Source of the DNA: a virus
IMG/VR virus record: IMGVR_UViG_3300017446_000010
Location: 1-42,036 of that record
Length of the DNA stretch: 42,036 nucleotides
Strand: one strand, 5' to 3'
Part shown: in pieces, positions 2,645 to 42,036 of the stretch
How positions within the stretch are numbered: the first letter of the stretch is position 1
How the letters are laid out: every line of letters starts with the position of its first letter
Translations under genes and position numbers: made by a program
Notes under the pieces: model-generated
The model's input: the letters and a program-made list of their open reading frames with translations, nothing else
Database searches by the model: none
Told to the model about the DNA's origin: nothing

Positions 2645-2910
2645 ATCTCGTTCTCCTCAACGCCATCCGTCAGCTTGGTGATCGCTGCCTGGAGCACGCC
2701 GATCGCGGTGAACCGGTCGAGCGCGCCCCAGCCGAAGATTGATATGACTTCACCGTGCGAAAGCTGGACAGCCACCATCGCGCGGGTGCGATCGTCGTCA
2801 TCCGTCTCGGCTTCGATGCTCTCCGCGGACTTGCGCAACATTGCCGGCACGTCGCTGGCGTTCTTGTCGTAAAGGGTGGCGACGAGCGCCAGTTCGGGGC
2901 GTTCGCTCAT
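2641..2910 (-). CDS. Hypothetical acidic protein, 89 aa
   Basis: Internal ATG at 2910 of track ORF 2641..3444, overlapping the endolysin stop (ATGA). Sequence: MSERPELALVATLYDKNASDVPAMLRK... Confidence 0.6.
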   Translation of the reverse strand: MSERPELALVATLYDKNASDVPAMLRKSAESIEAETDDDDRTRAMVAVQLSHGEVISIFGWGALDRFTAIGVLQAAITKLTDGVEENEI

Positions 2911-3437
2911 GCTGCAATCCTCGCCAGCCAGCCATAGATGAAAGCGCGGTTCGCCGAGCGGCCCTCCGCAAGATCCGCATAGCGCGCCCCCTGGAACGCG
3001 TTGAGCAGCGCAAGCAGGCGGGTTTCCCCTTCCTTGCCACGACGCGCCAGAAACGCCTTGAGGGCCGCTACAGAGGCGGGCCCGATCATGCCGTCCACCG
3101 CCAGCCCCGCATCCGTGACAAGGTTCAGCGCACGCTGCAGGAACCGCCCCGCGACCGCTGGCCCCATGTTCACGCCGGTGTCGACGAGCTCGGCCGCGAT
3201 CGGGCCGGATACGTTGGCGATCAGCCCGAACCCGGGCTTGATGACATACTGCCCGCGGTAGATCGCCAGTGCAGTTTCCCGCGTCATGGCCTTCATCGGG
3301 CCGGTGTAGCCGTTTGCTCGAGCGGTACCGATCGTGATGCCGTGGTTCGTCTCGCCGCCTGCATCGCGCGAGTCGTTGACGTAGCCGCCCTCGTTCTTGA
3401 GGACGTCGGCCAAGATGTCGTCGATGGTCATGTTCAC
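2907..3437 (-). CDS. Endolysin: GH108 N-acetylmuramidase plus PG_binding_3 domain
   Basis: The N-terminus ILADVLKNEGGYVNDSRDAGGETNHGIT is the GH108 signature. The C-terminus LAVDGMIGPASVAAL is the peptidoglycan-binding motif. Confidence 0.9.
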   Translation of the reverse strand: MNMTIDDILADVLKNEGGYVNDSRDAGGETNHGITIGTARANGYTGPMKAMTRETALAIYRGQYVIKPGFGLIANVSGPIAAELVDTGVNMGPAVAGRFLQRALNLVTDAGLAVDGMIGPASVAALKAFLARRGKEGETRLLALLNAFQGARYADLAEGRSANRAFIYGWLARIAA

Positions 3438-6613: not shown

Positions 6614-9559
6614 TCATGGCTGAAGCCCCTGCTGGTTGGCCTGGGGGTCGCCTGTATTCCCCTCGACGGGTGCGTTGCGGTCAGGGCCTTCGCTCGCTGC
6701 GAGACGTGTCGGGCTCACCGTGAACGCCTCCGCCAGTCGTCGTTGGAGGTCCAGAACCTCGTTCGCGATCGCAGGCTCAGCGCGGGCGATACGCGTTAGG
6801 CGTTTTACCAGAGCCGCGGACTTGGTTTCGTCCGGCTTGGACTTCATTGCCGCGCGCCCAACGACGGTCAGCGCGTCCTTGGTCCAAGCCCGCATGGCGG
6901 GATTCGCGAGAAACAACTTCCCTGAAAGGTATGCGGCCGGAACTGCCGCAGCTACTTCAGCTGCAGCGCCAACATTCCCATGCCAAAGCGCCGTGCCCAT
7001 CGTCGCAAGCAGGGCACCGGAGATGGTGTTCTTAGCCGTGTTGCTAAAATTGCGCGCCTTATCCAGCGTTCTGAGGCGGGCAGAATACTTTGCAATATCA
7101 GCGATTTGGTCGGTTGCCTCTTTGCCGAACACGACATTCCGGGCTTGCGGAGCCAAGTTGTCATAGTTCGTCAAGAAGGTATTGAACGACCATTCGGTGC
7201 CAAGGTCGTTCTGCTGCCCCGCCAGGGCGCGCCCCATGTCGTCAATGTGCGTGGCTGCGAAGGTGCTGCGCGCATTGCTAGGGAGGTTAAACCAAGTCTG
7301 CCGAAGGCGTGCGAGATTACCGCCCTTGCGCTGCATGTCTCCTACGACGCCGTTGTAGACGGCTTCCCCGCCTACATCCGTGTCATCGCGGTAAGATTTC
7401 AGCGGCTTCTTCAATGCGCCCTGTAGCGTGGCCGAGCGAGTACGCCAGAACGCATCAGCGTCCTTTTGCGCCTGGGCCGCAGACCCCGGCCCCGCACCTC
7501 GACCAGCAGCCAAGTCGGCTTGCTGAGCGGCAGTCATTACGTCATCTTCGATTGCCTGCTCGAGCTGACCTACGCGCCGCGTGATTGCGGGGGTGGCGCT
7601 GTTGCTCTTCGTGAGATTGCGCACGACGCCACGGATATGCGAAAGCGCCTCGGTTGCTTCACCGAGTGTTACAGGGCCATCTTCGGGTAGTGCGTTCTCC
7701 AAGGCACGAATAGCCGGATGCTCTCGCAAAGCTGCAAGGGCTGGGCTGGTTGGGAATGCTTGCGAGAACTGCGCAAACTGCGATCGGGTCTCTGCCAGAG
7801 GCACGGCGACGGACGCGCCGCCCATAAGGTTATCGCGCTGGCGGTAGAGCGCTCCGCCTTGCCGTGATGTCAGTCTCTCATATGCGCGTGCGCCTCGAGC
7901 CAAGCCAGCCCCAGCCTCTTGACGAGTGCTTACTGTCCCAATCTCTTCAGCAATTCCGCGAGCGGCGTTCCGCAAGCCCTCGGTCTCACCGTCGACCGCT
8001 TTGGAAACAGCCGTCATCCCGCCGGGCAGATTCCCTAGCCCCATCTGGACTGCCCGAGCTGCGAAACCTCCGTTCGTAGCTGGCGTCGCTGGGATGCCGT
8101 AATCTTGGCCGATCTCGGCGACGCTTCGCTCAGCCGTAGCGGCACCCTTAGCAGCAGCACGCGCACGCAAAGCTTGGGCGATGCGACTGCCCGCATAACC
8201 GGTAGCGCCGCCAGCAACGGCACCGACTGCGGCGCCAGTCACAGCCCCGGCTGCGCGGTCGACGATCCCGCCTTCTGCGTCACCGGCGCCGTAAGCGCCA
8301 CCAAGGCCCGCTGCCTCTTGAGCGGTGCGCGTGGCAAAGACACGCGCAGCAACGGCCTGTGCAGCTTCCTTAGTGGCCCCGCCGCGGATCGCTGCGATGC
8401 CCGCTGCTCGCGCCGCACCGGTCGCGCCGCTCGGGATGACGGCTCCAGCAAGAAGCTGGCCCCCAAGCCGAGGCAGGAAGTTGTTCTGTTCGTCGTAGGC
8501 GCTGACCGCGCGCTCTTTCTGAAGCGCCTTCTCGTAGTCGCCGCCATCGAGCACGGCGTTGAGCTCGTCGTCGAGCCCGACAACGGCCGGGATGCCACGC
8601 ACGAACGCGCGCGCACCCTCGGCAACACCGCCCTCGCCGCGGACGTCCGTGATGTCGACCTCGGGCTTGACGTATCCGAACTGCGGCGCAACGCCGGTCT
8701 TCTTGAATGCGTCGATTGCGTTCTGCGCTGCCTCAGGCGTGATCACTAGCCCGCGGTCGCCGATCCATTTGACGATGCTGTCGGGCGTAGCCGTCGGCAG
8801 GAACGCGGCGAACTGCGCTTCCTCGTCTGCCGTCAGGCGCTTTTCGTTGGCAGGCTTGGCGACATTGAACCCGATGTCGCCCCCGCCCTGTGGAGGCGTG
8901 CCGGGAGCGGGCGGCGTCGCGGTAGGACCCGCCGGGGGCGTGGCTGCTGCGCCTACTGCCCCCGCCGTGCCAGATGTCTGATCACCTCCTTCCGTCTGCG
9001 CCTTGGGGAAAAAGTTGGGATAGGTTTTCTTCAGGTCTTCGGTGACGGCCGAACCTGCTGAGTCGATTAACCCGCGGATAACTCGTTCGCGCGCCCGGGC
9101 CTTGGCCTCAATAACCTTGGGTCCCTCGCCAGGCTGCGGGAAATAGATGCGGTCTTGGGTCGCGATCTCGCTTTCGGGCAGATTGGCGCCAGAATCCTTA
9201 CGCAGCGTGGCGGCGATAAACTCTAGCTTGCTAGTGTCAGCAACCTGCTGGCTTTCGCTGTTGCCGCCAAGAAACTCGGGAACGGTGTTGGCGAGATCTG
9301 GAAAGTTGGCATTGAAAGCCTTCCCCGTTACCGATCGCGGACCAAGTCCCTGCTGCTGATAGGCTGCTGCGGCTCCAAGCGCGCGACGCAGGAAGGACGC
9401 AGCATTGGACTGCTCCACGCCTGCCGGCTTAGCGCCACTTGCTCCACCCGAACCGCTAGCGCCCTGCGCCACACGCCATTCGCCATCACGAAAGACGATC
9501 TTCCGACCGTCCTTGTGGGTTGCGGTTGCGCCTTCGGGGAAATCACCTTGTGCCATCAT
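6614..9559 (-). CDS. Large internal virion / DNA-ejection protein (about 981 aa)
   Basis: Position equals the P22 gp20/gp16 slot. Ala/Gly-rich with long helical stretches. The ATG at 9559 overlaps the upstream stop (TGATG); the track start at 9562 is TTG. Confidence 0.6.
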   Translation of the reverse strand: MMAQGDFPEGATATHKDGRKIVFRDGEWRVAQGASGSGGASGAKPAGVEQSNAASFLRRALGAAAAYQQQGLGPRSVTGKAFNANFPDLANTVPEFLGGNSESQQVADTSKLEFIAATLRKDSGANLPESEIATQDRIYFPQPGEGPKVIEAKARARERVIRGLIDSAGSAVTEDLKKTYPNFFPKAQTEGGDQTSGTAGAVGAAATPPAGPTATPPAPGTPPQGGGDIGFNVAKPANEKRLTADEEAQFAAFLPTATPDSIVKWIGDRGLVITPEAAQNAIDAFKKTGVAPQFGYVKPEVDITDVRGEGGVAEGARAFVRGIPAVVGLDDELNAVLDGGDYEKALQKERAVSAYDEQNNFLPRLGGQLLAGAVIPSGATGAARAAGIAAIRGGATKEAAQAVAARVFATRTAQEAAGLGGAYGAGDAEGGIVDRAAGAVTGAAVGAVAGGATGYAGSRIAQALRARAAAKGAATAERSVAEIGQDYGIPATPATNGGFAARAVQMGLGNLPGGMTAVSKAVDGETEGLRNAARGIAEEIGTVSTRQEAGAGLARGARAYERLTSRQGGALYRQRDNLMGGASVAVPLAETRSQFAQFSQAFPTSPALAALREHPAIRALENALPEDGPVTLGEATEALSHIRGVVRNLTKSNSATPAITRRVGQLEQAIEDDVMTAAQQADLAAGRGAGPGSAAQAQKDADAFWRTRSATLQGALKKPLKSYRDDTDVGGEAVYNGVVGDMQRKGGNLARLRQTWFNLPSNARSTFAATHIDDMGRALAGQQNDLGTEWSFNTFLTNYDNLAPQARNVVFGKEATDQIADIAKYSARLRTLDKARNFSNTAKNTISGALLATMGTALWHGNVGAAAEVAAAVPAAYLSGKLFLANPAMRAWTKDALTVVGRAAMKSKPDETKSAALVKRLTRIARAEPAIANEVLDLQRRLAEAFTVSPTRLAASEGPDRNAPVEGNTGDPQANQQGLQP

Positions 9560-10323
9560 CAATCCAAGATGAAACCGGCAGGCAGTTTAGACGGCTTGCC
9601 GCCACCTTTGCCGCCACCAGATGACTTACGATCCGCCCGTGCGTCATCACGCGCGCGCCCGGCGATGGCTGCCGTCGTTGCTCGCTCGCTGTTCACAACA
9701 CGACGCTCGGTCAGATCCATGCGCCGTTCCTCGCGGGCATCCTTGGCCGCGTCGCGCTGTGCCTTGTCGCTGTAGCCCAGCGCGTCGAGCACCGGCCCCG
9801 CGTCTTCGCCCAGCGTGCCACCAATCACGATGCCTGCGATCGCCTTCGCCTTGACGAGGTCGCCGGACTTGATTGCAGCCAGCGCGGCGTCGGTAACTTC
9901 CGTGCTCTCGCCAGTCTCGGCAAGTGCGGCGCGGCGCTGCTCGAGATCCTTGACGGCTTGGCCGGTCAACCCGGCGTTGAGAAACCCACCGAGCCGCATC
10001 GCCGCGTTGACGTTGCGCGTCTTCTGCGCGCCGGTCTGCTGGTCGGCCAGCGCCTTGAGCGCCGTTGCCTGCTCTGGGTGCTTCAGGAACAGGTCCTGGA
10101 TGCCCTGCGACGTCGGGTTGGTCATGTACCCGCCGATGTCGGCCTGCCAGGCAGCGTCCTTCGCCGCCTTCGCCTCCGTTTCCTGACGGGCGAGATCGAC
10201 GCGCTGCTGCTGGATCTCGGTCTGCGCATCGATCGCGTGGTTCTGCCGACGTATCTGCAAGCCCTGCATCAGCGGATTGAAGTCCGGCTGTGTGAGCATG
10301 GCGGAGTAGTTAATCGGGTCCAT
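9559..10323 (-). CDS. Internal virion / ejection protein, 254 aa
   Basis: Syntenic with the P22 ejection genes. Helical and charged, with C-terminus KSSGGGKGGGKPSKLPAGF. Confidence 0.5.
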   Translation of the reverse strand: MDPINYSAMLTQPDFNPLMQGLQIRRQNHAIDAQTEIQQQRVDLARQETEAKAAKDAAWQADIGGYMTNPTSQGIQDLFLKHPEQATALKALADQQTGAQKTRNVNAAMRLGGFLNAGLTGQAVKDLEQRRAALAETGESTEVTDAALAAIKSGDLVKAKAIAGIVIGGTLGEDAGPVLDALGYSDKAQRDAAKDAREERRMDLTERRVVNSERATTAAIAGRARDDARADRKSSGGGKGGGKPSKLPAGFILD

Positions 10324-10325
10324 GG

Positions 10326-10742
10326 TCAGAATCCCGCCACTGTGCCGGCGATCTTCAGGCCGGTGTTGAAGTTGTTCGCGACGAGGTTGCCTTGCGCAAT
10401 CTGACCGCCTGCGATCGCTGCGCCCTGCTGGGTCAGCTGCTGGCCGATGATCTGACCGGTCTGGATGCCCGCGTTGCCGACACCCGCCGCGGCGTTCTGG
10501 CCAAGGGACGACACCTGCCCCAAACGCTGGAACTGGTTGCTGATCACGCTCGACAGAAGATCAGCCCGGAAGTTCGCCAGGCTGTTGTTCGTGTTGCCGC
10601 CACGCAGCCCACCCGTCGCCGATGCGTTCTGAAGGATGGCTTCCTCGCCCTGCCGGACGCCGGTGGTGTACTCGGGTGACGTCAGTAATCCGCTGATGGC
10701 ATCCGACTGCGATGCGGTGCCGTTCAGGCCGATGAGGCCCAT
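10326..10742 (-). CDS. Gly/Gln/Ala-rich internal virion / ejection protein; the true start is probably upstream (up to 10946) at a non-canonical codon
   Basis: The frame stays open and protein-like for 68 codons upstream of the ATG at 10742 (ISFIGDAIGSVVGGLTGAKQSAKGAAAAAQ...). This stretch has no ATG, GTG or TTG. GGAG lies 8 nt before an ATT at 10946. Confidence 0.5.
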   Translation of the reverse strand: MGLIGLNGTASQSDAISGLLTSPEYTTGVRQGEEAILQNASATGGLRGGNTNNSLANFRADLLSSVISNQFQRLGQVSSLGQNAAAGVGNAGIQTGQIIGQQLTQQGAAIAGGQIAQGNLVANNFNTGLKIAGTVAGF

Positions 10743-11067
10743 CTGCTGTGCGATCGCTTTCGATCCAGCGTCGACGAAAGGCTGCTGTGTTGCGGAGTTC
10801 GCCTCGCGAGCGGCGCGGGCTTCGGCGATAGCCTTGTCGGCGGACGATGCTTGGGTCTGAGCGGCAGCAGCAGCGCCCTTGGCGCTCTGCTTGGCGCCGG
10901 TCAGGCCACCTACTACCGATCCTATGGCGTCGCCGATGAAGGAAATGGGTCAAGCTCCGAAACTAGTTCAGGAGCGACGCCGGCTTTCGCATGTACTCGG
11001 ACCAACACGCTTTACTACCAAAGCGACTCGTGCGCAAGTGCTGTCCGCTACGCCACGAGGATTCGCG

Positions 11068-11394
11068 ATGTTGCTCATTATTGCCGCCCTGCTCGCTGGT
11101 CAGTCGGCGACCACGACCTGCCAGACGCACTCTGGCATCACGACATGTGACACGCGTGACACCGGGATCCAGCCATCTGTGCCGCCTACCGATTACAGCT
11201 CGCGCATGGCGCAGATCGACACGTCAGGGTTGGACACCCTCGCTGCCAACGTTCGGGCAAACAAGGGACGCAAGGCGCGCAAGAAGGTAGGCAAACTGAT
11301 TGCGGCCGGTCAGTGCGACGAAGCAGTCTCGGTAGCACTCAACGCCGGTGATCTAAGCCTTGCCAGTCAAGCGCGAAGCTTCTGCCGACGCTGA
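11068..11394 (+). CDS. Small secreted Cys-containing protein, 108 aa (opposite-strand moron)
   Basis: The ATG at 11068 is preceded by ACGAGGA. Signal-like N-terminus MLLIIAALLAGQSATTTC. Lies on the + strand inside the - strand tail module, downstream of an AT-richer spacer. Confidence 0.55.
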   Translation: MLLIIAALLAGQSATTTCQTHSGITTCDTRDTGIQPSVPPTDYSSRMAQIDTSGLDTLAANVRANKGRKARKKVGKLIAAGQCDEAVSVALNAGDLSLASQARSFCRR

Positions 11395-11850
11395 CGCTGT
11401 CCAATCCGCCCGAGTTAAGCCGAGAATGATGATGTCGGTCGGCTCGCCGCGAACCATGCACGCGTGCCGCCTTCGCCCTTCGTCGGTGAAGCCCAGCTTG
11501 CGGACCATATTGGCAGCAGATCCCAGCGTTCCGATCACATAGGCCGTCGCGCGTAAGACGACCGGATCGGCGAACACCTGCGCCAAGAACAGGTGAGACA
11601 GAGCGCGCCCATGCGCCACAGCCTCCCGCTTGATCGCAACGTGCACCTCGGTTTCGTAGGCCGTGAACCGCACCGCCATGAACAGCCCGACGAGGCGGTC
11701 ATCGGCATATGCCCCGTGGTAAGTCAGCAGCGGGTGATCGACATACGCAGCAGCGCGGTCATCCCGGCGCAGCTTCGGCGCTATCCACGCATCCCGCAGC
11801 AGTGCGTCGACAGCGTTTGGATCGTCCAGCGGCTCAACGCGCAGATTCAC
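11353..11850 (-). CDS. GNAT-family N-acetyltransferase (RimJ/RimL-like)
   Basis: RLVGLFMAV...VAIKREAVAHGRAL...NMVRKLGFTDEGRRRHACMVRGEPTDIIILGLTRADW matches the GNAT fold motifs. Confidence 0.75.
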   Translation of the reverse strand: MNLRVEPLDDPNAVDALLRDAWIAPKLRRDDRAAAYVDHPLLTYHGAYADDRLVGLFMAVRFTAYETEVHVAIKREAVAHGRALSHLFLAQVFADPVVLRATAYVIGTLGSAANMVRKLGFTDEGRRRHACMVRGEPTDIIILGLTRADWTASASAEASRLTGKA

Positions 11851-12356
11851 GGCGTCAGGCTGTGGTTCGCACGACCATCGATCACCAGAGCAGCCACCGT
11901 CTTCGACAGCGCCGCAACCTGATCCGTCAGCGCTTGGACATCGGCCTGGGTGTAAGTGGCGGCTGCTGTGCCGCCAGCGTAGGCCGGGAGCGGTGCTCGC
12001 GAGGGCGTGGCAAGGGGCGCACTGAAGGTTGGGCCAGCGTCTTTCTCCACTTTGGTGTCAGCAAGATCGTAAGCGTCGTCTGCGCGATCATAGGCGTCGT
12101 CGGCACGCGCCATTGCGGCGTTGGCTGAGCCTTGGGCGAACTCGGCAGTGCTTTGCGCCACCTCGCCCGTCGCTTGCGCTGCTTCCCCGGTTGCCTGAGC
12201 CGTCGTTGCTGCCTGCTGCGCAACAGCCGTGTCCGCCGGCCCGTCGGTGTATGCAGCAGCCTGAAGATCCTCGACGAACTGCACCGCCTGCGGACTGGTA
12301 CCAAGGCCAGTCGACGCGATCGACCGACGATCTAGCGTTGTGTAATCAGGCCGCAC
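11847..12356 (-). CDS. Tail needle (P22 gp26-like trimeric coiled coil)
   Basis: Follows the gp10 homologue. Heptad-like repeats (ATGEAAQATGEVAQSTAEFAQ, DDAYDRADDAYDLAD) and C-terminal TYTQADVQALTDQVAAL resemble P22 gp26 TYTQSEIQAIANAL. The GTG at 12356 has a GAGGGG SD; the longest ORF starts with TTG at 12383. Confidence 0.6.
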   Translation of the reverse strand: MRPDYTTLDRRSIASTGLGTSPQAVQFVEDLQAAAYTDGPADTAVAQQAATTAQATGEAAQATGEVAQSTAEFAQGSANAAMARADDAYDRADDAYDLADTKVEKDAGPTFSAPLATPSRAPLPAYAGGTAAATYTQADVQALTDQVAALSKTVAALVIDGRANHSLTP

Positions 12357-13761
12357 CGCCAAGCCCCTCGATCTGCGCCTCAAGCCGCGCGAACGCGACG
12401 GGATCGGTCAGCCGCCCCTCGAAGCGGTAGCCGCGCCAGTTGCGCACCAGCCCACACTGCCGCCATGCTGGCCGCGCCGATCGATTGCCGCGCGCACCAG
12501 TCCTCGACGGGCGCTGCTGGCTATAGGTGCTGCCGTCGTTCGTATAGGACATCATCACCGGCGCACTGGTGTCGCCGCTGCGGCCTGCCATAGCGACGAG
12601 CTCTAGACTATGCAGGATGGCACCCATGCCGCCATTGTAGATGAACAGCGTGTCGAATGCATAGCGCGGTGCGGTGTCGAACACCGTTGCGATCGCGTCG
12701 TCGACAACACCGATCTTGACTTGTGAACCCGCCCACCACCGCCCGTTGAACAGCGTGAAGTGACGCGGCTCGTAGCCTGCATCAGCCGACACACCGCTTG
12801 CAAGGCGATACCACACCGGCTGATCCAGCTGCTGCGACGACACCCAGCCGTAGACCCATGTCTGGCGAGGCAGATGCACCAAGAGCTCGAGCTGGCCAGA
12901 CGAGTTGCGCTGCTCGACCTCGATGCCGGCGAGCTCATCGGCCGTCAGGCGGGACAGCTCGTCATCCATCGCACGCGGGCTAATCTTGATCGCCTGGCCG
13001 GAGCCCGCAAGATAAACCGCGCACGTCTCATTGCGGCCCGACCCGACGAATGCGAACGTCTCAACGAACGGCGAGAAGGCGTTGGGCCCGACGCATCCTT
13101 TGCCGATCTCCGCACCACGGTTGCGCGCGAACGGGAAGCCAGTCGTGCCTCGGTTGCTGAACACCTCAATCGAATAGCGGTTGAGCGCATAGACTTCACC
13201 GCGCAGGGCGAGCAGTCCCGATATGGGATCCGGCACAGCCTCGCTCGAGCCATACTTCAGCGGGTCGATGCTCGTCGGGTCGTTGAGTTCGGTGATGACG
13301 ATGCTCGTGCCATCGGTCGTGATGAAATACCCGTCGGACCAAGCCAGCGACAGCACCGGCCCCAGATCCGCGTCGGTGACTTGGGTCAGCGCCGTGCCGC
13401 TATAATACCACAGCGCGGCCCCGGAGTTGATGGCGAGGCGGTCGAATGATTCCGCCCATGTCACCGGCCCACCCGTGCCGACATCGCCGACGGGGACTAT
13501 CGTGCCATCGTCCAGCATCATCGCCAGCTTCGTGCCGATCACCCGGTAATGCTTGCCCTTCCAGACGTAGCCACCACGGTCAGCGTTCGCGATTGTAGCC
13601 TTCGTGGCGATGCCCGCCGGCGAGCGCAGATAGCCCTTGCTGATCCCGCTACCGCTGCCATCGCCGCTCTCGACGACCGGCACCATGTTGAGCGGATGGG
13701 ATTTGTAGAAGTCAGGCGTGGACCGACCCACGATCCCAGACAGGATCGGGATTTGCGTCAC
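12346..13761 (-). CDS. Tail hub / head-completion protein (P22 gp10-like)
   Basis: 471 aa versus 472 aa in P22 gp10. GYLRSPAGI matches P22 GYLRSFPGI. Sits between the gp4-like and gp26-like genes. Confidence 0.8.
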   Translation of the reverse strand: MTQIPILSGIVGRSTPDFYKSHPLNMVPVVESGDGSGSGISKGYLRSPAGIATKATIANADRGGYVWKGKHYRVIGTKLAMMLDDGTIVPVGDVGTGGPVTWAESFDRLAINSGAALWYYSGTALTQVTDADLGPVLSLAWSDGYFITTDGTSIVITELNDPTSIDPLKYGSSEAVPDPISGLLALRGEVYALNRYSIEVFSNRGTTGFPFARNRGAEIGKGCVGPNAFSPFVETFAFVGSGRNETCAVYLAGSGQAIKISPRAMDDELSRLTADELAGIEVEQRNSSGQLELLVHLPRQTWVYGWVSSQQLDQPVWYRLASGVSADAGYEPRHFTLFNGRWWAGSQVKIGVVDDAIATVFDTAPRYAFDTLFIYNGGMGAILHSLELVAMAGRSGDTSAPVMMSYTNDGSTYSQQRPSRTGARGNRSARPAWRQCGLVRNWRGYRFEGRLTDPVAFARLEAQIEGLGGAA

Positions 13762-14156
13762 CAGCCAAACATCCAGCGATCACCGCCACCGATGACGCGC
13801 ACCGCAGAACGGATCGACGTGGGGATCACGAGCGTCGCCGCGTGCACCGCATCCTTGCCCATGCGTGCGTCATGCCGAACGTTGCCCAGCGGATCCTTGC
13901 CATAGGTCGGCGCCAGCTTCAGCGCGAGGTTGGAGATGATCGCCTCGTCGAAGTCCGCATCTGTGCCAATGTCGGTCTCCCGGCTGGGTTCGTCCCCGCT
14001 TGGCACATAGCCGACGAGGCCATTCCAAGGCGCCTGAGCCATCATCGTATCGAGCCGGCCGAACGCCTGTGCAATCTCGTCTGGTGTCAGGTCGAACGTG
14101 TAGGATGCGAACCCGATGTCGGCGAACGCGCGGTCCAGGATGGTGCCGCGGTTCAT
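13758..14156 (-). CDS. Head-to-tail adaptor (P22 gp4-like)
   Basis: ILDRAFADIGFAS..LTPDEIAQAFGRLDTMMAQ parallels P22 gp4 [33 protein letters not shown]. The ATG at 14156 overlaps the upstream stop (ATGA). Confidence 0.7.
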   Translation of the reverse strand: MNRGTILDRAFADIGFASYTFDLTPDEIAQAFGRLDTMMAQAPWNGLVGYVPSGDEPSRETDIGTDADFDEAIISNLALKLAPTYGKDPLGNVRHDARMGKDAVHAATLVIPTSIRSAVRVIGGGDRWMFGW

Positions 14157-15133
14157 CGAACCACCTCGTACCAAGTACCACCCGTCGACTGCACGACCGT
14201 GCCGACCGGAAGGCTGAACTGCTTGGCCTTCTCAACACCCAGCTTGATCTTGCCGTCGCGATTGCCGTCAGGAAGCACCTCGCCAGCGTTGAAGCCGCGA
14301 GGGGCGGCGATGATCGGCGTGTTGATCGCATAGCCCTTCGCATCGCGGGTGCAATTCTTGCCCCACGTCACCCGGGCAGCCTTGCCGCCCCACTGGAGCA
14401 GCGTGCCGGCCGGGACCGCGATGACGCATTCCTTGACGACGATCGAGACGGGGTACGGGTTCTCGATGCGCAGCACTGGCGCCGTCGTGGTGCTGCCCAC
14501 GACGAGCCGATCAATGACGACCGTCTGGGCGGCCTTGGCGTTCAGCCAGACATGCGCGCCCGACGGATTGCGGCTGGTCAGCGTGCTCGCCGTGATGTCG
14601 TTCCAGAAGCGGTAGTTCCGGCCGTTGCGCTCAGCGACGAGATCCTCGAGGCGGGCATGGCCCTTTAGGTCGAACCCGCCGTCGCTGTTGTCGGTCGAGA
14701 CGTCGCGGCGATAGGTGACGCGGTAGACCTGCGCCTCCTGGCTGAACCCGTCGCCGTTCGTGTACTTCTTCGGGACGTAGACCATCCGGTGCCCGGTCGC
14801 GGTGACGTCCTCGATCAGGACGTCGTGGACAGTCCCGCCGATGTCGATCCCAACCGGCAGATCGCTGCCTTTCGTCATGCCCTTGGTCGTCATCGAGCCG
14901 TTGCGGATCACGATGTCGTGCGCGTTGCCGCGTAGGCGGACACCAGCGCGGCCGTAGCGCAGGTTGAACACATCCATGCGCAGGCCCGTCGCCTCGTCGA
15001 GCGCATCAATATAGCGGTAGCTGGTGAGGTTGGTCGCCTTCGTGATGAGTGTCCCCGGCTTGAGCGGTCGGTCAGGACCGGCAAGCGCAGGGGAAGCGAT
15101 CAAGACGAGTGGCAACAGCAGATGGCGGATCAT
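14153..15133 (-). CDS. Signal-peptide-bearing right-handed beta-helix protein (putative secreted glycanase or lyase)
   Basis: Sec-type N-terminus MIRHLLLPLVLIASPALAG. Repeated short beta-helix-like rungs (VRLRGNAHDIVIRNGSM, IGGTVHDVLIEDVTA, DNSDGGFDLKG). Confidence 0.6.
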   Translation of the reverse strand: MIRHLLLPLVLIASPALAGPDRPLKPGTLITKATNLTSYRYIDALDEATGLRMDVFNLRYGRAGVRLRGNAHDIVIRNGSMTTKGMTKGSDLPVGIDIGGTVHDVLIEDVTATGHRMVYVPKKYTNGDGFSQEAQVYRVTYRRDVSTDNSDGGFDLKGHARLEDLVAERNGRNYRFWNDITASTLTSRNPSGAHVWLNAKAAQTVVIDRLVVGSTTTAPVLRIENPYPVSIVVKECVIAVPAGTLLQWGGKAARVTWGKNCTRDAKGYAINTPIIAAPRGFNAGEVLPDGNRDGKIKLGVEKAKQFSLPVGTVVQSTGGTWYEVVR

Positions 15134-15239
15134 GTCAGTTGACCTGTTTCATAGGGAGATTTGAGTAAGATTTGTACAAAACATCACATTGCGCATGTTC
15201 CGACGACGTGGCTTTATTCGCCACGAAACGGGGGATTAC

Positions 15240-15899
15240 ATGCGTAACAAGATTTGGCTTTTGGCCTTGACGGGTGTTGGTTTGGTCAGCGCCTTGACCG
15301 GGTTCGAAATAGGACAGCGGCCCGCTGGCAACGACAGTGCCGCCTATGTAAGGCGACGGCCCGTCGTGCTGCTGGATCAAGCCAAAAGCTACCAGCATGG
15401 CGGCGTGCTCGTCATCGGTGATAGCATCAGCGAACGGTCGGGCATCTCTACGCTGTGCGGCTTGCCCGTCTTTAACGCTGGGATCTCGTCCGCGCGTACG
15501 AAGGACTTGGCCGACCTAACACCTAAGCTTGTAGCCGAAATCAAGCCGACGCTGGTATTCATTGCTCTGGGGACAAACGACGCAAACGCAGCGCGCCCTA
15601 CCGCAATCGACGAGTGGCAAAAGCAATACGAGGCGCTAGTCCGTTCGGTCGGACGCGTGCCTGTTGTTCTTGCAGCAGCTCCGATGATCGAACGCGGCAA
15701 AGAGCGGTCGTCCCAGTTCGACACACGTCGAATTGCGGCCATGAATGCGCGCCTGCCCAGCATCGCCGCGCGCTTCGGTGCCGTATTCGTAACTGCCGCG
15801 CCCACTTCGACGATGGACGGCGTACATCCGGACACCGCAGGCGCAGAGACTTGGCGGGGCAACCTTGCCCGGGGTTGCCCCACGAACATCACAGCGTAA
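15240..15899 (+). CDS. Secreted SGNH/GDSL-family hydrolase (esterase or deacetylase), opposite-strand moron
   Basis: Signal-like MRNKIWLLALTGVGLVSALTG. SGNH blocks are present: VIGDSIS (I), NAGISS (II), ALGTNDA (III) and DGVHP (V). The ATG at 15240 follows GGGGA. Confidence 0.8.
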   Translation: MRNKIWLLALTGVGLVSALTGFEIGQRPAGNDSAAYVRRRPVVLLDQAKSYQHGGVLVIGDSISERSGISTLCGLPVFNAGISSARTKDLADLTPKLVAEIKPTLVFIALGTNDANAARPTAIDEWQKQYEALVRSVGRVPVVLAAAPMIERGKERSSQFDTRRIAAMNARLPSIAARFGAVFVTAAPTSTMDGVHPDTAGAETWRGNLARGCPTNITA

Positions 15900-15938
15900 C
15901 TCGATTGGCTGCACTAGTAGCCTGGGGCTGGTGTCGGG

Positions 15939-18536
15939 TCATGCTGTGACCCCGGCGTTAGTCGTGCCATCAAGGTGGTAAAGACCGATAAGGCCCGTCT
16001 CAGTGCCTGCGTATGGAGCCGTGGGCGGTGTGAACCCTGCCGTGTACTTGGCGATGTTCCAGACCGCAACCTCATCAACATTGGCGGTGCTCTGGAACGT
16101 CGCCGGGGTCGTCGAGCTGTAATTGCGGATGCCGAACTTGTCGTTCGCGGTCATCAGTGCGCGACCGCTGCTGCTAGTACCGACTGCCACGCCGTCCACA
16201 TATAGAACGCCGCCTGTGTCAGCAGTGACAACCATCGCAATATGGCGGCGCACGCCATCGGTCACGACCGGGTTTGTGCCCTCGGCCGAGTTCGTTGACG
16301 TTCCGCAATAACGCGTAGTCGAGGTGGCTGAGTTATACGCACCGACGATACGCCCGAACGTGTTGACGCCGATCCACCCTGCGCGACCCTGACCAGCGAT
16401 GATGCCTAGATTGGCCGGGATCGCTGCGATGTCGATCCATGCCTCGATCGTGAACGTCTGAAGGTTGTTGAGCAGATCGGTGGTAGCAGGCGAGAAGCCG
16501 TAGCCCCCCGTCATCTTCTGCCCAAATCCACTCGCCCCCGAAGCGTAAGTAGCACTGGTCGGCGACAGGTCTGGACCAATCTTGGTGCCGGGCGTCGGGG
16601 TTGGAGTCGGTGTAGGCGTGCCGCTCGGCGCTGCCACCTGCAATGCGGCCAGGGACGCACGAAGCTGACGGCCCCGCGTGATGCCATCGCCATCGGTCCG
16701 GTTATCGTAAATCACATTGGTCTGGCCGTCTGCACTCGGATCGATCGGCGCGAACGCGTAGACGTCGAGAGCCTGACTATCGGCCGGAGCCGAGGCAAGG
16801 CGCAACGTAATGCTAGTCGCATTGACGATAATCGGCGTAGTGCTGTCGAGCGCAAGAGGGCTGGTCATCGCACCCGACCCGAAGACCGAGAAGCGGTTAG
16901 CAGGTGCGCCGACAGCAGAAACGGCCGTTGCCCCGGATGGGAAGGCGAGCGGCATAACAATATCCGTCGAACCGGATGCGCGAGTGCCCGACGCCAGCGA
17001 TGGCCCCATGTCATCCCCAGACAGGCCAAGGCCGGGACGTGCAGCACGAAAGAAGTGACCGGCGAGCGTTACCGAACCAAGCTGCGACTGATGCACGCCA
17101 TCGTAGAGGTCGAGATCATTGGCATTGATCCGCTGCGCGCCGTTGATCGTTGCCCAATTGGCCATTGCATTGCGGATCGCGAGGATCTGGGCGGGCGTGC
17201 CCCACAACGTGCTGCTGATGTTAGGGATGCTGCCGAGAAGCTTGTCGTAATTGGCACCGCGCGCGGCATTATGCGCCGTGATGTCGGCGAACAGGCTGTC
17301 GAGATTGCTCTGATAGGTTGCGGTCGCCATGCCGTTCTTGGCGTCGGTATGCCCCTGCATCCAGATGAAGGTTTCGAAACCTCCCGCCGCGTCCAGCGCA
17401 TCGCGCAAGCCCTGGTTGTCCGCACCACCGGGGATGAACCGCGTGATGCTCTGCGAACCGCGTGCATAGCCCACCAAGAAGCAGTTGACGCCGGTCGCGG
17501 CGATCCGCTTTGTGAGATAGTCCGCGGCGAATGCGCTGTTGTATGGTCCCGTGCCTTCGGCAATGCGCCCCCACGTTGGCAGTGCGGCAGCAGTCGCGGA
17601 CGGCTCAAGCGGTTGTACGAAGCACGACGCATTAGCCGGTATCGACGCCCCTACAGACGCGATGGTGACGGTTGCCTGAGAATCGCGCGCCAGCAGCATC
17701 CGGGTAGCGAGAGACTGGCCCGACACGCCGGTCGAGCTGCCCATGCCTACCAACGCTGTACCGTTTTGCCATGTCGTTCCATCGCCCGAAAGGTCGAGAT
17801 AGAACCAGCCAAGGCGCGCATCTACGCCGGCAATAGGCACGATCTGCGCGCCCGTTGCGCTGGCGGTTGCCGCAACCCAAGACGACTGAAGGATCGTCGA
17901 GCCGTCCGCAGCACGCACCCGAGCATATACGCTGCCAATCGTCGAAACATTGAGGGATACTGGGATGGTGCCCCGCCCCTTTGCCTGCCCGCCATCAGTC
18001 ATCGTCGTGCGCTGATACCCTCGGTAATCCGGGGATAGCTGCGTCATCGTAAACGCGCTTGGTGTCGGCGTAGGCGTAGGCGTAGGCGTAGGCGGCACGA
18101 TAACCCCGCCACTGGTGATGACCGCCGGAAGGACGGTATTCCGAACGATCCCCATGAAGCTCTCCGTAAGTGTTATGTCCGGCTCGCCTGCCGCAGTGAA
18201 TGTGCCTGTGACGGTGTTGCCAACGACGGTCAGCGTGGTGCCGTCGGATGCCGTCGCGGTGATCGTTGATCCCGACGTGGCGTTGCCGATCGTTGCCGAG
18301 AATGGCACGTCGGGTTCGAACTCAAGTGAGGACAAGGTCAGCGCACGCAACGACGGACCACCGCCAGACAGCGATTGATCATATGCCACCTGAGCGAGGT
18401 TCTGCGTCAGGGCGTACGCGCTTTCGAGCGCCGCGAAACGGGTCTCAAGAGCGACGATGCGGCCCAGCGCCACCTCCAGATTGTATTCTGGCAGGTTCGG
18501 GAACCCATAGTCGTTGATGCTGCTGCGACGGCGCAT
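15939..18536 (-). CDS. Tail fibre / side spike with a SASA-type carbohydrate esterase domain and a C-terminal LamG (concanavalin-like) lectin domain
   Basis: GVSGQSLA and FIWMQGHTDA resemble the sialate O-acetylesterase GQSN and WxQGE motifs. C-terminus FTIEAWI...RHIAMVV...LYVDGV...VDEVAVW is Laminin_G_3-like. There are two (PT)n linkers. Confidence 0.7.
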   Translation of the reverse strand: MRRRSSINDYGFPNLPEYNLEVALGRIVALETRFAALESAYALTQNLAQVAYDQSLSGGGPSLRALTLSSLEFEPDVPFSATIGNATSGSTITATASDGTTLTVVGNTVTGTFTAAGEPDITLTESFMGIVRNTVLPAVITSGGVIVPPTPTPTPTPTPSAFTMTQLSPDYRGYQRTTMTDGGQAKGRGTIPVSLNVSTIGSVYARVRAADGSTILQSSWVAATASATGAQIVPIAGVDARLGWFYLDLSGDGTTWQNGTALVGMGSSTGVSGQSLATRMLLARDSQATVTIASVGASIPANASCFVQPLEPSATAAALPTWGRIAEGTGPYNSAFAADYLTKRIAATGVNCFLVGYARGSQSITRFIPGGADNQGLRDALDAAGGFETFIWMQGHTDAKNGMATATYQSNLDSLFADITAHNAARGANYDKLLGSIPNISSTLWGTPAQILAIRNAMANWATINGAQRINANDLDLYDGVHQSQLGSVTLAGHFFRAARPGLGLSGDDMGPSLASGTRASGSTDIVMPLAFPSGATAVSAVGAPANRFSVFGSGAMTSPLALDSTTPIIVNATSITLRLASAPADSQALDVYAFAPIDPSADGQTNVIYDNRTDGDGITRGRQLRASLAALQVAAPSGTPTPTPTPTPGTKIGPDLSPTSATYASGASGFGQKMTGGYGFSPATTDLLNNLQTFTIEAWIDIAAIPANLGIIAGQGRAGWIGVNTFGRIVGAYNSATSTTRYCGTSTNSAEGTNPVVTDGVRRHIAMVVTADTGGVLYVDGVAVGTSSSGRALMTANDKFGIRNYSSTTPATFQSTANVDEVAVWNIAKYTAGFTPPTAPYAGTETGLIGLYHLDGTTNAGVTA
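16591..16620. repeat. Imperfect GGNGTN hexamer repeat encoding the second (TP)n linker of the fibre
   Basis: ggcgtc ggggtt ggagtc ggtgta ggcgtg; encodes TPTPTPTPTP on the - strand. Confidence 0.8.
18061..18093. repeat. Tandem GGCGTA x4 hexamer repeat encoding the first (PT)n linker of the fibre
   Basis: ggtgtc ggcgta ggcgta ggcgta ggcgta ggc read directly; encodes PTPTPTPTPTP on the - strand. Confidence 0.9.
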
Positions 18537-41578: not shown

Positions 41579-41992
41579 ATGATCGTTGACCAAGCGCCCC
41601 CAGCACCTGTGGCATTCGCTCACCCGGATGGCCGCCATTGGTTCCGCATCGAGTATATCGACGGCATGTGGGAGGCCATCTGGCCCGAGGAAGGGCCACG
41701 GCGAGAATACTCCGACCGCATCCCAAAGGTGTCGCAGGTCTATTTCATTGGCCCTAAAAGGGGCCCGGTAAAGATCGGTGAGGCCACATGCCCACTGCAC
41801 CGATTGCGTTCGCTTCAGTGCGGCAACCACGAACAGCTGTATGTGCTGGCGACGTGTTCTGGCGGTCAAGCAGCTGAGCGTGAGTACCATCGCCGCTTCG
41901 CCAGCGCGCGCCTGCACGGCGAGTGGTTCGCCCCCACGCCCGAGATCGAAGCCGAGATTGCCCGCCTTAATGATCGGAGTGAAGCAGCATGA
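41579..41992 (+). CDS. T5orf172 / MUG113 (GIY-YIG-superfamily) domain protein
   Basis: VYFIGPKRGPVKIGEATCPLHRLRSLQCGNHEQLYVLA...EREYHRRFASARLHGEWF matches the T5orf172 consensus. Confidence 0.75.
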   Translation: MIVDQAPPAPVAFAHPDGRHWFRIEYIDGMWEAIWPEEGPRREYSDRIPKVSQVYFIGPKRGPVKIGEATCPLHRLRSLQCGNHEQLYVLATCSGGQAAEREYHRRFASARLHGEWFAPTPEIEAEIARLNDRSEAA

Positions 41993-42036
41993 GCCGGCCA
42001 ATCGATAAAAAGCACAACCTGTGGAAGCGAAAGCCA
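41914..42036. repeat. Terminal direct repeat copy 2 (identical to 1-123)
   Basis: Same 123-nt string as the window start. Confidence 0.95.

Follow-up and report, generated by a model that had tools for sequence, protein, structure and literature searches.

Divergent genes for a putative exported beta-helix depolymerase and a predicted membrane-anchored SGNH enzyme as candidate independent accessory modules of a P22-like sphingomonad phage

Two genes of unusual character lie back to back between the coat and gp4 genes in the window, that is, the whole 42,036-nucleotide stretch of IMG/VR virus record IMGVR_UViG_3300017446_000010 that was analysed. One of them encodes a 326-aa right-handed beta-helix protein that looks exported and carbohydrate-active, and the other encodes a 219-aa SGNH enzyme that looks extracytoplasmic and likewise carbohydrate-active. 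The best explanation, to which we assign a probability of roughly 0.5 jointly with the roles proposed for the modules, is that the coat-gp4 interval is a variable slot in which two independent accessory modules have gathered, namely a late exported exopolysaccharide (EPS) depolymerase and a receptor-linked moron that edits O-acetylation. The coordinates of the features concerned are collected in Table 1.

Table 1. Features in and around the divergent gene pair, numbered from the first letter of the window.
Feature	Coordinates	Strand	Basis
gp4-like head-tail adaptor (essential late gene) that follows the beta-helix gene	13758..14156	-	Pfam P22_Tail-4 E 2.8e-10; PHROG 637 'head-tail adaptor Ad3'
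ATGA overlap of the beta-helix stop and gp4 start codons	14153..14156	-	sequence; pipeline calls overlap by 4 nt
Exported Pel9A-like right-handed beta-helix protein, 326 aa, putative EPS depolymerase	14153..15133	-	ORF, AF2, Foldseek, profile match
Sec-type signal peptide of the beta-helix protein, residues 1-18 (MIRHLLLPLVLIASPALA, followed by GP)	15080..15133	-	n-, h- and c-regions and AxA site
AT-richer divergent spacer, 106 bp	15134..15239	.	GC 0.45 vs 0.626 in the window
SGNH O-acetyl esterase/transferase-type enzyme, 219 aa, predicted membrane-anchored or exported, antisense to the late operon	15240..15899	+	Pfam, AF2, alignment
39-bp gap separating the SGNH and 865-aa tail-esterase genes at their convergent stops	15900..15938	.	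coordinates
Fibre-like protein, 865 aa, SASA carbohydrate-esterase domain and C-terminal LamG, convergent partner of the SGNH gene	15939..18536	-	Pfam

The phage is complete, circular, temperate and P22-like, and its host is of sphingomonad (Sphingomonas) type. A 123-bp repeat occupies the ends of the window, which contains the P22 coat, portal, gp4, gp10, gp7, integrase, ERF recombinase and endolysin genes, with the canonical P22-type gene order kept for coat, portal, gp4, gp10 and the ejection proteins; gp10 is the ORF that follows gp4, and profile matches include PF11651 (1e-88), PF16510 (4e-126), PF11650, PF11134 and PF25688/PHROG 598. Scans of the window for tRNA genes and Rfam families found none. 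Relatives were found by tblastn against GenBank phages, while megablast of positions 11-20 kb against the same phages returned nothing and a single-sequence gp10 scan of viral contigs yielded no close relative. The coat-to-gp4 distance amounts to 6.2 kb in the window against 0.07-0.9 kb in related P22-like phages, and in the four relatives compared the interval is filled by small genes or by none, the SGNH and beta-helix genes both being absent. This difference justifies the wording of the sequence-only reading, which had described the two genes as inserted in the tail module.

The positions given by that reading were borne out for both genes and their leaders, for the SGNH blocks, for the spacer (45% GC) and for the ATGA shared with gp4, and an independent pipeline made identical 326-aa and 219-aa gene calls on opposite strands. 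Translation of the SGNH gene is best started at ATG 15240, which has GGGGGA 4 nt upstream, whereas the mechanical ORF runs from TTG 15189. The assignment to the SGNH/GDSL enzymes holds, as all catalytic blocks are present and structure prediction and Foldseek agree on the fold. The protein matches Pfam Lipase_GDSL_2 (PF13472) with an E-value of 6.5e-15 and 56.5 bits over a cut-off of 32.9, and in an 11-member alignment the blocks GDS (60-62), NAG (79-81), GTND (111-114) and DGVH (193-196) are invariant, together with residues S62, G81, N113, D193 and H196 and the cysteine pair C73/C213. Beyond generic GDSL families, its curated matches are limited to a PHROG annotated as 'lipase' and a sub-threshold NCBIfam TesA. 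The AlphaFold2 (AF2) model (pLDDT 87.4) consists of a transmembrane helix (2-25) and a second helix (30-49) followed by the three-layer alpha/beta/alpha SGNH fold, and the juxtamembrane helix is conserved, with invariant Y36 and R40. A Foldseek search of the model against the PDB gave 111 matches at E<=1e-3, all of them SGNH enzymes, the best fold match being sialate O-acetylesterase (6njc/7pzg, TM-score 0.71-0.78). The leader that had been ascribed to this protein is present as a hydrophobic N-terminus, but as a helix of about 24 residues it resembles an uncleaved signal anchor more than a cleavable signal. A lipoprotein signal was rejected for the leaders of both proteins, neither of which has a lipobox cysteine.

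The surroundings of the SGNH gene are as informative as its fold. Its convergent partner in the window, the 865-aa fibre-like protein, bears a Pfam SASA domain (E 9e-8, residues 326-497), a Laminin_G_3 domain (E 6e-10) and PT-repeat linkers, and its gene has a GC3 of 0.70, low like the 0.67 of the SGNH gene, which compares with 0.78-0.85 in the structural genes. The same arrangement, with the SGNH gene antisense to and convergent with a distal tail-fibre gene, recurs in about seven lineages (the window and loci L010, L017-19, L020, L021-23, L025 and L026). In five of these the convergent neighbour is itself an esterase of GDSL or SASA type (the window, L010, L021-23, L025 and L026), while no esterase domain was detected in the convergent fibres of L017-L020, including those of L017 (1042 aa) and L020 (969 aa). 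Descent of the 219-aa protein from the 865-aa fibre by copying was rejected, as was a duplication relating P0128 to the 626-aa fibre of L010, since neither comparison showed similarity by BLASTP or hhalign. The antisense orientation, the GC3 of 0.67 and the recurrence beside receptor-binding genes in other phages bear out the moron behaviour that had been attributed to the gene, and these moron-like features fit receptor masking or lysogenic conversion. The gene does run against the leftward arm, but it is not alone in this: another ORF on the antisense strand, at 11068-11394, likewise begins with a leader-like stretch.

Taken together with its fibre, the SGNH gene would form the second module of the proposed explanation: the 865-aa protein would be the esterase fibre of the virion, and the SGNH gene its antisense, convergent companion. 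An inner-membrane anchor would hold the SGNH enzyme so that its catalytic domain faces the periplasm, and the enzyme would descend from the SGNH subunit of split AT3+SGNH systems for surface-glycan O-acetylation. It would be transcribed apart from the late operon, in the lysogen or early in infection, and would alter, most likely lower, the O-acetylation of the glycan that is recognised by the esterase fibre of the phage. The outcome could be receptor masking or superinfection exclusion, with the gene travelling together with the receptor-binding gene. Separate transcription is suggested by the antisense orientation only; no promoter-like site was found in the spacer, nor any terminator that would isolate the SGNH gene. 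A sigma-70 consensus was not found on either strand of the spacer, RNA folding of the spacer was unremarkable and not above shuffled controls, no hairpin or terminator in the 39-bp gap exceeded shuffled controls, and no promoter-like or intrinsic terminator signal was detected around either gene, these promoter and terminator scans being weak for alphaproteobacteria.

The label of deacetylase given to the SGNH protein by the sequence-only reading agrees with its esterase-like fold but is one of two options, because the cellular relatives of the protein adjoin AT3 O-acyltransferase genes and it may consequently act in acetyl transfer. About 22 cellular members of the family adjoin an AT3 gene, and the nearest of them (38-41% identity) are situated immediately beside AT3 genes in Sphingomonas, Bradyrhizobium and other alphaproteobacteria. 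It can thus be proposed that the orphan SGNH serves as a specificity subunit on a standalone AT3 of the host and adds or re-positions an O-acetyl group, leading to conversion as with Oac and NeuO. In keeping with this proposal, the transmembrane helix and the juxtamembrane helix with Y36 and R40 resemble the transmembrane helix and linker of AT3-SGNH fusions, and standalone AT3 enzymes may need a partner that is still unknown (PMC9833829); the OatA acyltransferase domain is also a weak sequence match to the SGNH protein (E 0.007). Nevertheless, no AT3 gene was found in the window or in any SGNH-bearing phage locus, so that the SGNH is an orphan in phages, the canonical S-G-N-H oxyanion residues are all kept, and the best fold and sequence matches are hydrolases rather than OatA, OafB or PatB. 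Moreover, removal of the same group would explain the pairing with a virion deacetylase more simply, and acetyl transfer is considered unlikely on balance.

A broader generalisation, which we advance tentatively and with less confidence than the explanation for this phage, is that an orphan membrane-anchored SGNH captured from AT3+SGNH systems is always positioned antisense beside the receptor-binding gene, across several morphotypes of temperate alphaproteobacterial phages, where it might either strip the acetyl group read by the fibre or join a host AT3 to rewrite it.

The beta-helix protein, which would constitute the first module, carries a canonical leader. It begins with MIRHLLLPLVLIASPALA followed by GP, made up of a positive n-region M-I-R-H, a hydrophobic h-region LLLPLVLIASP and then A-L-A before the G, with small residues at -3 and -1 and no proline at +1. 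The AxA site with the subsequent GP is kept in 14 of 16 close homologs despite varying sequence of the h-region, and homologs that have no leader start at the mature N-terminus. In the AF2 model (pLDDT 91.9), which confirms the predicted beta-helix, residues 1-20 are disordered and the protein is entirely beta-helical from about residue 28, with beta-strand rungs running from residue 29 to about 260. A Tat signal on this protein was rejected, there being no twin arginine. Across the wider family, leader-like N-termini occur in 61 of 120 members; twin-arginine-like leaders are seen in 15 of these, all distant members. The cysteine pair C236/C261 tracks the leader, which is present in 22 of the 24 sequences with the pair, whereas 23 of 25 leaderless sequences have no such pair (Fisher 1.5e-5, not corrected for phylogeny). 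Export is thus predicted from leader heuristics and conservation, with the covariation of cysteines and leader as indirect support.

As for its activity, the Foldseek search with the beta-helix model retrieved only generic beta-helix CAZymes and tailspikes, and the TM-scores to every solved structure were low (0.3-0.5). The profile matched Pel9A (1ru4) locally, with an E-value of 0.009 over 40 residues only; D128, E133, D151, D155, K157 and N170 are invariant, but the SDGGFDL motif alone aligns with Pel9A, so that it is uncertain whether these residues are in register with the ligands of Pel9A. Homologs carry weak precomputed matches to PF22842 (Pel9A-like_beta_helix), while the protein itself had no match among the curated families of Pfam, PHROGs, NCBIfam and PADLOC, and tblastn against GenBank phages returned nothing. 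Given such low TM-scores (0.3-0.5), the protein labelled a putative depolymerase may just as well be an epimerase or a binding protein. One cellular homolog that was checked has GT4 glycosyltransferase, Ugd and Wzz/GNVR genes for neighbours, within a cluster for EPS biosynthesis in Sphingomonas. Related beta-helix domains are also built into large tail proteins, and in L001 and in the L009 and L032/L033 types such a domain and the exported copy are met in the same kind of prophage. An origin of the protein by copying from the 591-aa tailspike of the window was rejected, as BLASTP and hhalign revealed no similarity.

The gene is co-oriented with the late genes, has a GC3 of 0.85 and contains, within its 3' end, a GAGGTG Shine-Dalgarno sequence 5 nt upstream of the gp4 ATG. 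Elsewhere it behaves as a mobile late gene of several unrelated sphingomonad phages, where it follows large genes for tail proteins or enzymes: in L001, L002, L005, L008 and L038 a large late gene precedes it in tight coupling, and in other prophages no late gene comes after it, its place being behind the lysis cassette at the prophage end in L001, L005, L008 and L038. In the SU10-like podophage L015, a leaderless homolog is found between a 1093-aa fibre-like gene and an adaptor gene; it directly precedes the adaptor gene and thereby occupies the slot that the beta-helix gene has in the window. The translational coupling to gp4, the terminal late position in other prophages and the adaptor-upstream site in L015 indicate that the protein is most likely a late-expressed enzyme and not a lysogeny-expressed conversion factor, so that lysogenic conversion, one of the uses named in the sequence-only reading, is not supported for this gene. 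According to the proposed explanation, the protein would be a Sec-exported Pel9A-like beta-helix, probably disulfide-stabilised, that acts on host exopolysaccharide or capsule. Being coupled to gp4, it would be made late in infection; it would then pass into the periplasm, where it could undergo oxidative folding and come into contact with nascent polymer, and would be freed at lysis as a soluble depolymerase, so that progeny would not be trapped in EPS.

In that scheme the beta-helix protein would be no part of the virion. A contrary interpretation would make it a short tailspike or fibre-associated enzyme whose hydrophobic N-terminus does not serve export. Its gene is indeed embedded in the structural operon and coupled to gp4, many tailspikes appear among the Foldseek matches, and the beta-helix domain forms part of large tail proteins in other phages. 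The leaderless homolog in the same slot of L015 also makes a virion role compatible with the family. Against it, the AxA leader is conserved in the 14 of 16 close homologs, the cysteine pair follows the leader, and in L001, L005, L008 and L038 the gene stands after the lysis cassette instead of among tail genes. Furthermore, in the AF2 model about 10 residues of the mature protein precede the first rung; the protein thus opens directly with the beta-helix and has no N-terminal particle-binding (adaptor) domain. A virion enzyme is accordingly rated as improbable, and a soluble late depolymerase is preferred.

The sequence-only reading had joined the two genes in a single system, a secreted pair expressed in the lysogen from the divergent spacer that remodels EPS or LPS for conversion or exclusion. 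The divergent layout around an AT-richer spacer, the exported appearance of both proteins and the temperate, integrase-bearing nature of the phage speak for such a pair. However, the beta-helix and SGNH families never co-occur outside the window, among more than 20 beta-helix loci and about 49 SGNH family members, and a functional operon-like pair was rejected on this account. The genes also differ in codon composition, with a GC3 of 0.85 in the beta-helix gene against 0.67 in the SGNH gene, no promoter consensus was found in the spacer, and a lysogen promoter for the beta-helix gene would additionally drive gp4, gp10 and the downstream structural genes, as neither a gap nor a terminator intervenes. 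What endures of the claim is that both products look exported and carbohydrate-active; their timing likely differs, and a joint lysogenic pair is given little credence.

Least probable of all is that the proteins assist lysis or entry, the SGNH as a periplasmic lipase or peptidoglycan de-O-acetylase (LysB- or Ape-like) and the beta-helix by attacking an envelope layer. Periplasmic lipases of the TesA type and esterases that act on O-acetyl-peptidoglycan do belong to the SGNH enzymes, and TesA itself appears in the list of fold matches; the SGNH gene abuts the lysis cassette in L017-L019, and the beta-helix gene follows lysis genes in L001, L005 and L038. In the window, however, both genes are more than 10 kb from the endolysin gene (2907-3437), and every phage locus examined has the SGNH gene on the strand opposite to the lysis and late genes. 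Sugar O-acetylesterases outrank lipases among the fold matches of the SGNH protein, and the gene that recurs beside it encodes a tail fibre or tail esterase instead of the lysin.

Several known systems resemble the two modules in part. The genes for NeuO (CUS-3), Oac (Sf6) and GtrABC (P22), which convert serotype or capsule, adjoin a tailspike or integrase gene, and the present phage is likewise a temperate P22-like phage with a candidate gene for modifying the glycan to which its own tail enzyme is directed. Oac is a standalone AT3 and NeuO a transferase of the cytoplasmic hexapeptide-repeat kind, whereas the gene here encodes an orphan SGNH with a predicted membrane anchor, the phage having no AT3. 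It runs antisense within the structural operon and converges on the gene of an esterase fibre, and the likely reaction is removal of acetyl rather than its addition. The Llp protein of T5, whose gene lies beside that for pb5, and Cor of phi80 and N15, encoded near tail-fibre genes, are exported and inactivate the receptor of their own phage; they are small lipoproteins that block a protein receptor, in contrast to the candidate enzymes described here, which would act on a glycan. Deacetylating tail fibres of the G7C gp63.1 type are virion proteins with SGNH or SASA domains, and comparable esterase domains are present in the 865-aa protein and in the neighbours of L010, L021-23, L025 and L026, while the 219-aa SGNH has no fibre domains, is predicted to be TM-anchored and is encoded on the opposite strand. 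Such virion fibres include those of Pectobacterium phage Possum and the SGNH receptor-binding proteins of Klebsiella prophages (PMC9569702, PMC13123978). NeuO is prophage-encoded, and O-acetylation of the K1 capsule raises phage resistance (PMC3046976, PMC13001214).

The AT3-SGNH O-acetyltransferases (OafA/OafB, OatA) and the split PatA/PatB system provide a further precedent (PMC9833829, PMC7448272). They share with the phage protein a periplasmic SGNH domain on a transmembrane helix and structured linker and an extracytoplasmic glycan as substrate, both being predictions in the present case, and the cellular relatives of the phage SGNH are encoded beside AT3. In contrast with the fused enzymes, the phage SGNH is a separate polypeptide with no AT3 partner, and it is nearer in sequence and fold to sugar O-acetylesterases than to OatA. 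The 326-aa protein, for its part, has the right-handed parallel beta-helix of phage tailspikes and of Pel9A (a PL9 pectate lyase) and displays a conserved cluster of acidic residues and Lys. It differs from them in having a Sec leader, a small size, no particle-binding domain and scores below all curated-family thresholds.

If the proposed explanation is true, phages of EPS-rich alphaproteobacteria would edit their own receptor from within the cell, with enzymes that mirror the tail, a periplasmic esterase corresponding to the fibre esterase and an exported beta-helix to the beta-helix of the tailspike. Should the broader generalisation hold as well, the phage would contribute to a two-component enzyme just the half that confers specificity or does the editing, a previously undescribed and widespread class of receptor-editing superinfection-exclusion genes would emerge, and the missing periplasmic partner of standalone AT3 acyltransferases would be identified, the cellular SGNH-AT3 gene pairs being candidate answers to that question. 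A small TM-anchored SGNH gene that is antisense to and convergent with a fibre gene could flag receptor-binding and exclusion genes in uncultured phages, and the exported beta-helix family may represent an uncharacterised source of sphingan- or EPS-active enzymes.

The window is read as the complete genome of a temperate P22-like phage with a GC content of 62.6%. About 123 bp recur in direct orientation at its two ends, so that the contig closes into a circle at about 41.9 kb, either because the genome is complete or because of an assembly overlap. The leftward arm harbors genes for both terminase subunits (small and large), the P22 portal, the scaffold and the P22 coat, together with gp4, gp10 and a gp7-like ejection protein; it also encodes an endolysin, a 982-aa protein and a pectate-lyase-like tailspike of 591 aa, and the integrase, methylases and ERF recombinase are located on the right side. 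The closest homologs of the accessory genes are found in Sphingomonas and related alphaproteobacteria. The coat and gp4 genes lie 6.2 kb apart in the window versus 0.07-0.9 kb in four related P22-like phages (Sphingopyxis phage VSN-002, two Manatee Spring phages and Pseudomonas phage PfAn1), where small genes at most intervene, which argues that the genes for the 142-, 109-, 174-, 159-, 865-, 219- and 326-aa proteins are extra cargo in a variable slot.

The divergent beta-helix (326-aa) and SGNH (219-aa) genes, their AT-richer spacer (45% GC) and the ATGA overlap of the 326-aa stop with the gp4 start, all described in the sequence-only reading, were recovered, and a GAGGTG ribosome-binding site is found immediately 5' of the overlap. 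Sequence scans found no promoter or terminator consensus near either gene. The SGNH gene is not alone in running against the leftward arm: a second antisense gene, encoding 108 aa, lies between the gp7-like and GNAT genes and overlaps the 3' end of the latter. Its product carries a leader-like N-terminus (MLLIIAALLAGQSA...) and four cysteines and matches no curated family, and the mechanical 171-aa ORF that contains the gene has a GC3 of about 0.63. The GNAT-like gene itself is situated between the gene in the gp26 position and the ejection genes; since PfAn1 has a 'putative acetyltransferase' at the equivalent position, it seems to be a conserved component of this phage group.

Features of the window and of the comparison loci (L-numbers)
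Feature	Position	Strand	Remarks
Direct repeat, window ends	1-123 = 41914-42036
Mechanical 171-aa ORF	10879-11394
Antisense gene, 108 aa	11068-11394	+	also called by external pipeline
GNAT-like acetyltransferase	11353-11850	-	PHROG 4470/651
Beta-helix gene, 326 aa	14153-15133	-	identical call by independent pipeline
SGNH gene, 219 aa	15240-15899	+	identical call by independent pipeline
865-aa protein gene	15939-18536	-	SASA esterase domain, two (PT)n linkers, C-terminal LamG
L001, large tail protein and small beta-helix	3660-5954; 10001-10987
L009, large tail protein and small beta-helix	3135-5753; 10001-11011
L008, 718-920-aa protein	7848-10004
L009, 718-920-aa protein	7755-9992
L038, 718-920-aa protein	6780-9542
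L027, beta-helix homolog and AT3 gene	9674-10612; 10963-11979		opposite strands
L012, TM-anchored SGNH then AT3	8001-9821		same order in L039, L040, L044, L045, L076-78, L085, L091, L093, L099, L105, L106
L026, SASA esterase	7103-8011		convergent with SGNH homolog

Compositionally, the region is a mosaic of two parts, one being the 865-aa esterase fibre gene with the convergent SGNH gene and the other the beta-helix gene. GC3 is 0.67 in the SGNH gene and 0.70 in the 865-aa gene, in comparison with 0.78-0.85 in the other structural genes, and the low values of both suggest that these two genes arrived together. The proposal that the beta-helix and SGNH proteins form a functional pair, a depolymerase plus a deacetylase, is contradicted by the finding that their genes never co-occur elsewhere among the loci compared and differ in composition, and their expression timing probably differs too.

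The AlphaFold2 model of the 326-aa protein, built from a 60-sequence alignment, is with confidence (pLDDT 91.9) a parallel beta-helix of the right-handed type, with residues 1-20 disordered. The Foldseek matches, at TM-scores of 0.3-0.5, were confined to phage tailspikes and generic carbohydrate enzymes with a beta-helix. No model in Pfam, PHROGs, NCBIfam or PADLOC reaches its threshold with this protein; homologs of the protein carry a weak precomputed Pfam label, Pel9A-like_beta_helix, and a short stretch of the family profile, SDGGFDL...NGRNY, aligns with pectate lyase Pel9A (E 0.009). Invariant residues D128, E133, D151, D155, K157 and N170 suggest a putative active site. The N-terminus, MIRH / LLLPLVLIASP / ALA|GP, is built like a Sec signal peptide, whose AxA|GP site is retained in 14 of 16 close homologs with a variable hydrophobic core, and in a few leaderless homologs the first residue coincides with the mature N-terminus. 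About half of 120 family members bear a leader, in some cases a twin-arginine one. C236 and C261 are placed about one helical turn apart, and, uncorrected for kinship, a leader is present in 22 of 24 carriers of such a pair and the pair is missing in 23 of 25 leaderless members, a pattern that would be expected for a disulfide formed outside the cytoplasm.

The beta-helix gene is the only gene common to the window and the other loci that carry it, namely four sipho-like prophages (L001, L008, L009 and L038), another phage type (L002), the SU10-like podophage L015 and L005, where it sits at the prophage end 3' of the lysis genes; it is thus a mobile unit. It is nearly always closely coupled 3' of a large, non-homologous late gene, including those for a 932-aa FAD_oxidored-like protein, 718-920-aa proteins, a 460-aa GDSL esterase and a 1093-aa fibre-like protein. 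The 718-920-aa proteins of L008, L009 and L038 start with MKTILL(W/F)D.RF and have no family match, and together with the following beta-helix gene they form a conserved two-gene cassette with which sipho-like sphingomonad prophages end, 3' of their lysis genes. In the viral contig L027, a leader-bearing beta-helix homolog adjoins an AT3 acyltransferase gene, which adds a further phage in which this beta-helix and an O-acetylation gene occur together.

Since a terminator cannot fit into the gp4 overlap, essential structural genes are included in every transcript that covers the 326-aa gene, for which late expression is thus the simplest reading. Its enzyme would be made late in infection, would fold and act in the periplasm upon export, and would be set free at lysis as an EPS depolymerase. 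A rival explanation assigns the family a role in the virion, with which a leaderless copy occupying the equivalent slot in L015 is compatible. Beta-helix domains of this kind are embedded within large tail proteins of several phages, and a Sphingomonas exopolysaccharide cluster holds a leaderless cellular relative. Prophages L001 and L009 each encode a large tail protein with a related beta-helix domain (27% identity to the small beta-helix) as well as a small exported-type copy, and such pairs would be the same type of enzyme in a virion-bound and a free form.

In the 219-aa protein, the model places an N-terminal transmembrane helix and a conserved second helix before the SGNH fold, and all SGNH blocks and the C73/C213 pair are invariant in the family. 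Its best structural matches are a Phocaeicola vulgatus sialate O-acetylesterase and other small-acyl sugar esterases; the PDB sequence matches are likewise esterases, and the OatA acyltransferase domain is marginal only. Of all the results, the genomic context of this family is the most informative. About 49 non-redundant members, collected with a family HMM from viral, genome and metagenome scans, fall into a cellular and a phage class, their neighbours being counted without correction for phylogeny on gene maps from a simple GC3-guided ORF caller, as used for all the comparison loci. Cellular SGNH genes have an AT3 acyltransferase gene as neighbour, in most cases directly 3' of them, at about 22 loci of Sphingomonas, Bradyrhizobium and other alphaproteobacteria, an arrangement that is a split version of the AT3-SGNH O-acetyltransferases. 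Standalone AT3 proteins may require an unknown partner (PMC9833829), for which the small TM-anchored SGNH protein encoded directly before a standalone AT3 gene on alphaproteobacterial chromosomes could be a candidate.

No AT3 gene was found in the loci of the phage members, in which the SGNH gene runs antisense to the late genes and converges with the distal tail-fibre gene (the window, the SU10-like L010, L017-19, L020, L021-23, L025 and L026). The convergent neighbour is a GDSL or SASA esterase in five lineages; in L017-20 it is a fibre of about 1000 aa, in which a search detected no esterase domain. The SASA esterase of L026 has a signal-peptide-like start (MRFLIVAALCLVPQLCSAQQ).

The secreted surface-polysaccharide remodelling proposed in the sequence-only reading survives in part: it loses the pairing, and the 326-aa gene is most simply late, but a receptor-modifying role fits the SGNH gene. 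As a small putatively exported enzyme travelling with a receptor-binding gene and transcribed against it, the phage SGNH protein would fit a receptor-modifying moron. Most likely, it would lower the O-acetylation of the glycan recognised by the virion esterase; alternatively, it may work via a host AT3 to rewrite acetylation. The nearest known analogue of the proposed SGNH role is the capsule O-acetylation by NeuO of prophage CUS-3, which increases phage resistance (PMC3046976, PMC13001214), and a recent Klebsiella prophage study raised the possibility that acetylation and deacetylation add a layer to the competition between phages (PMC13123978). In the literature searched, no description of the recurrent SGNH-fibre architecture was found. 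With this reading the case falls under an established category, the receptor-linked editing of surface glycans by temperate phages.
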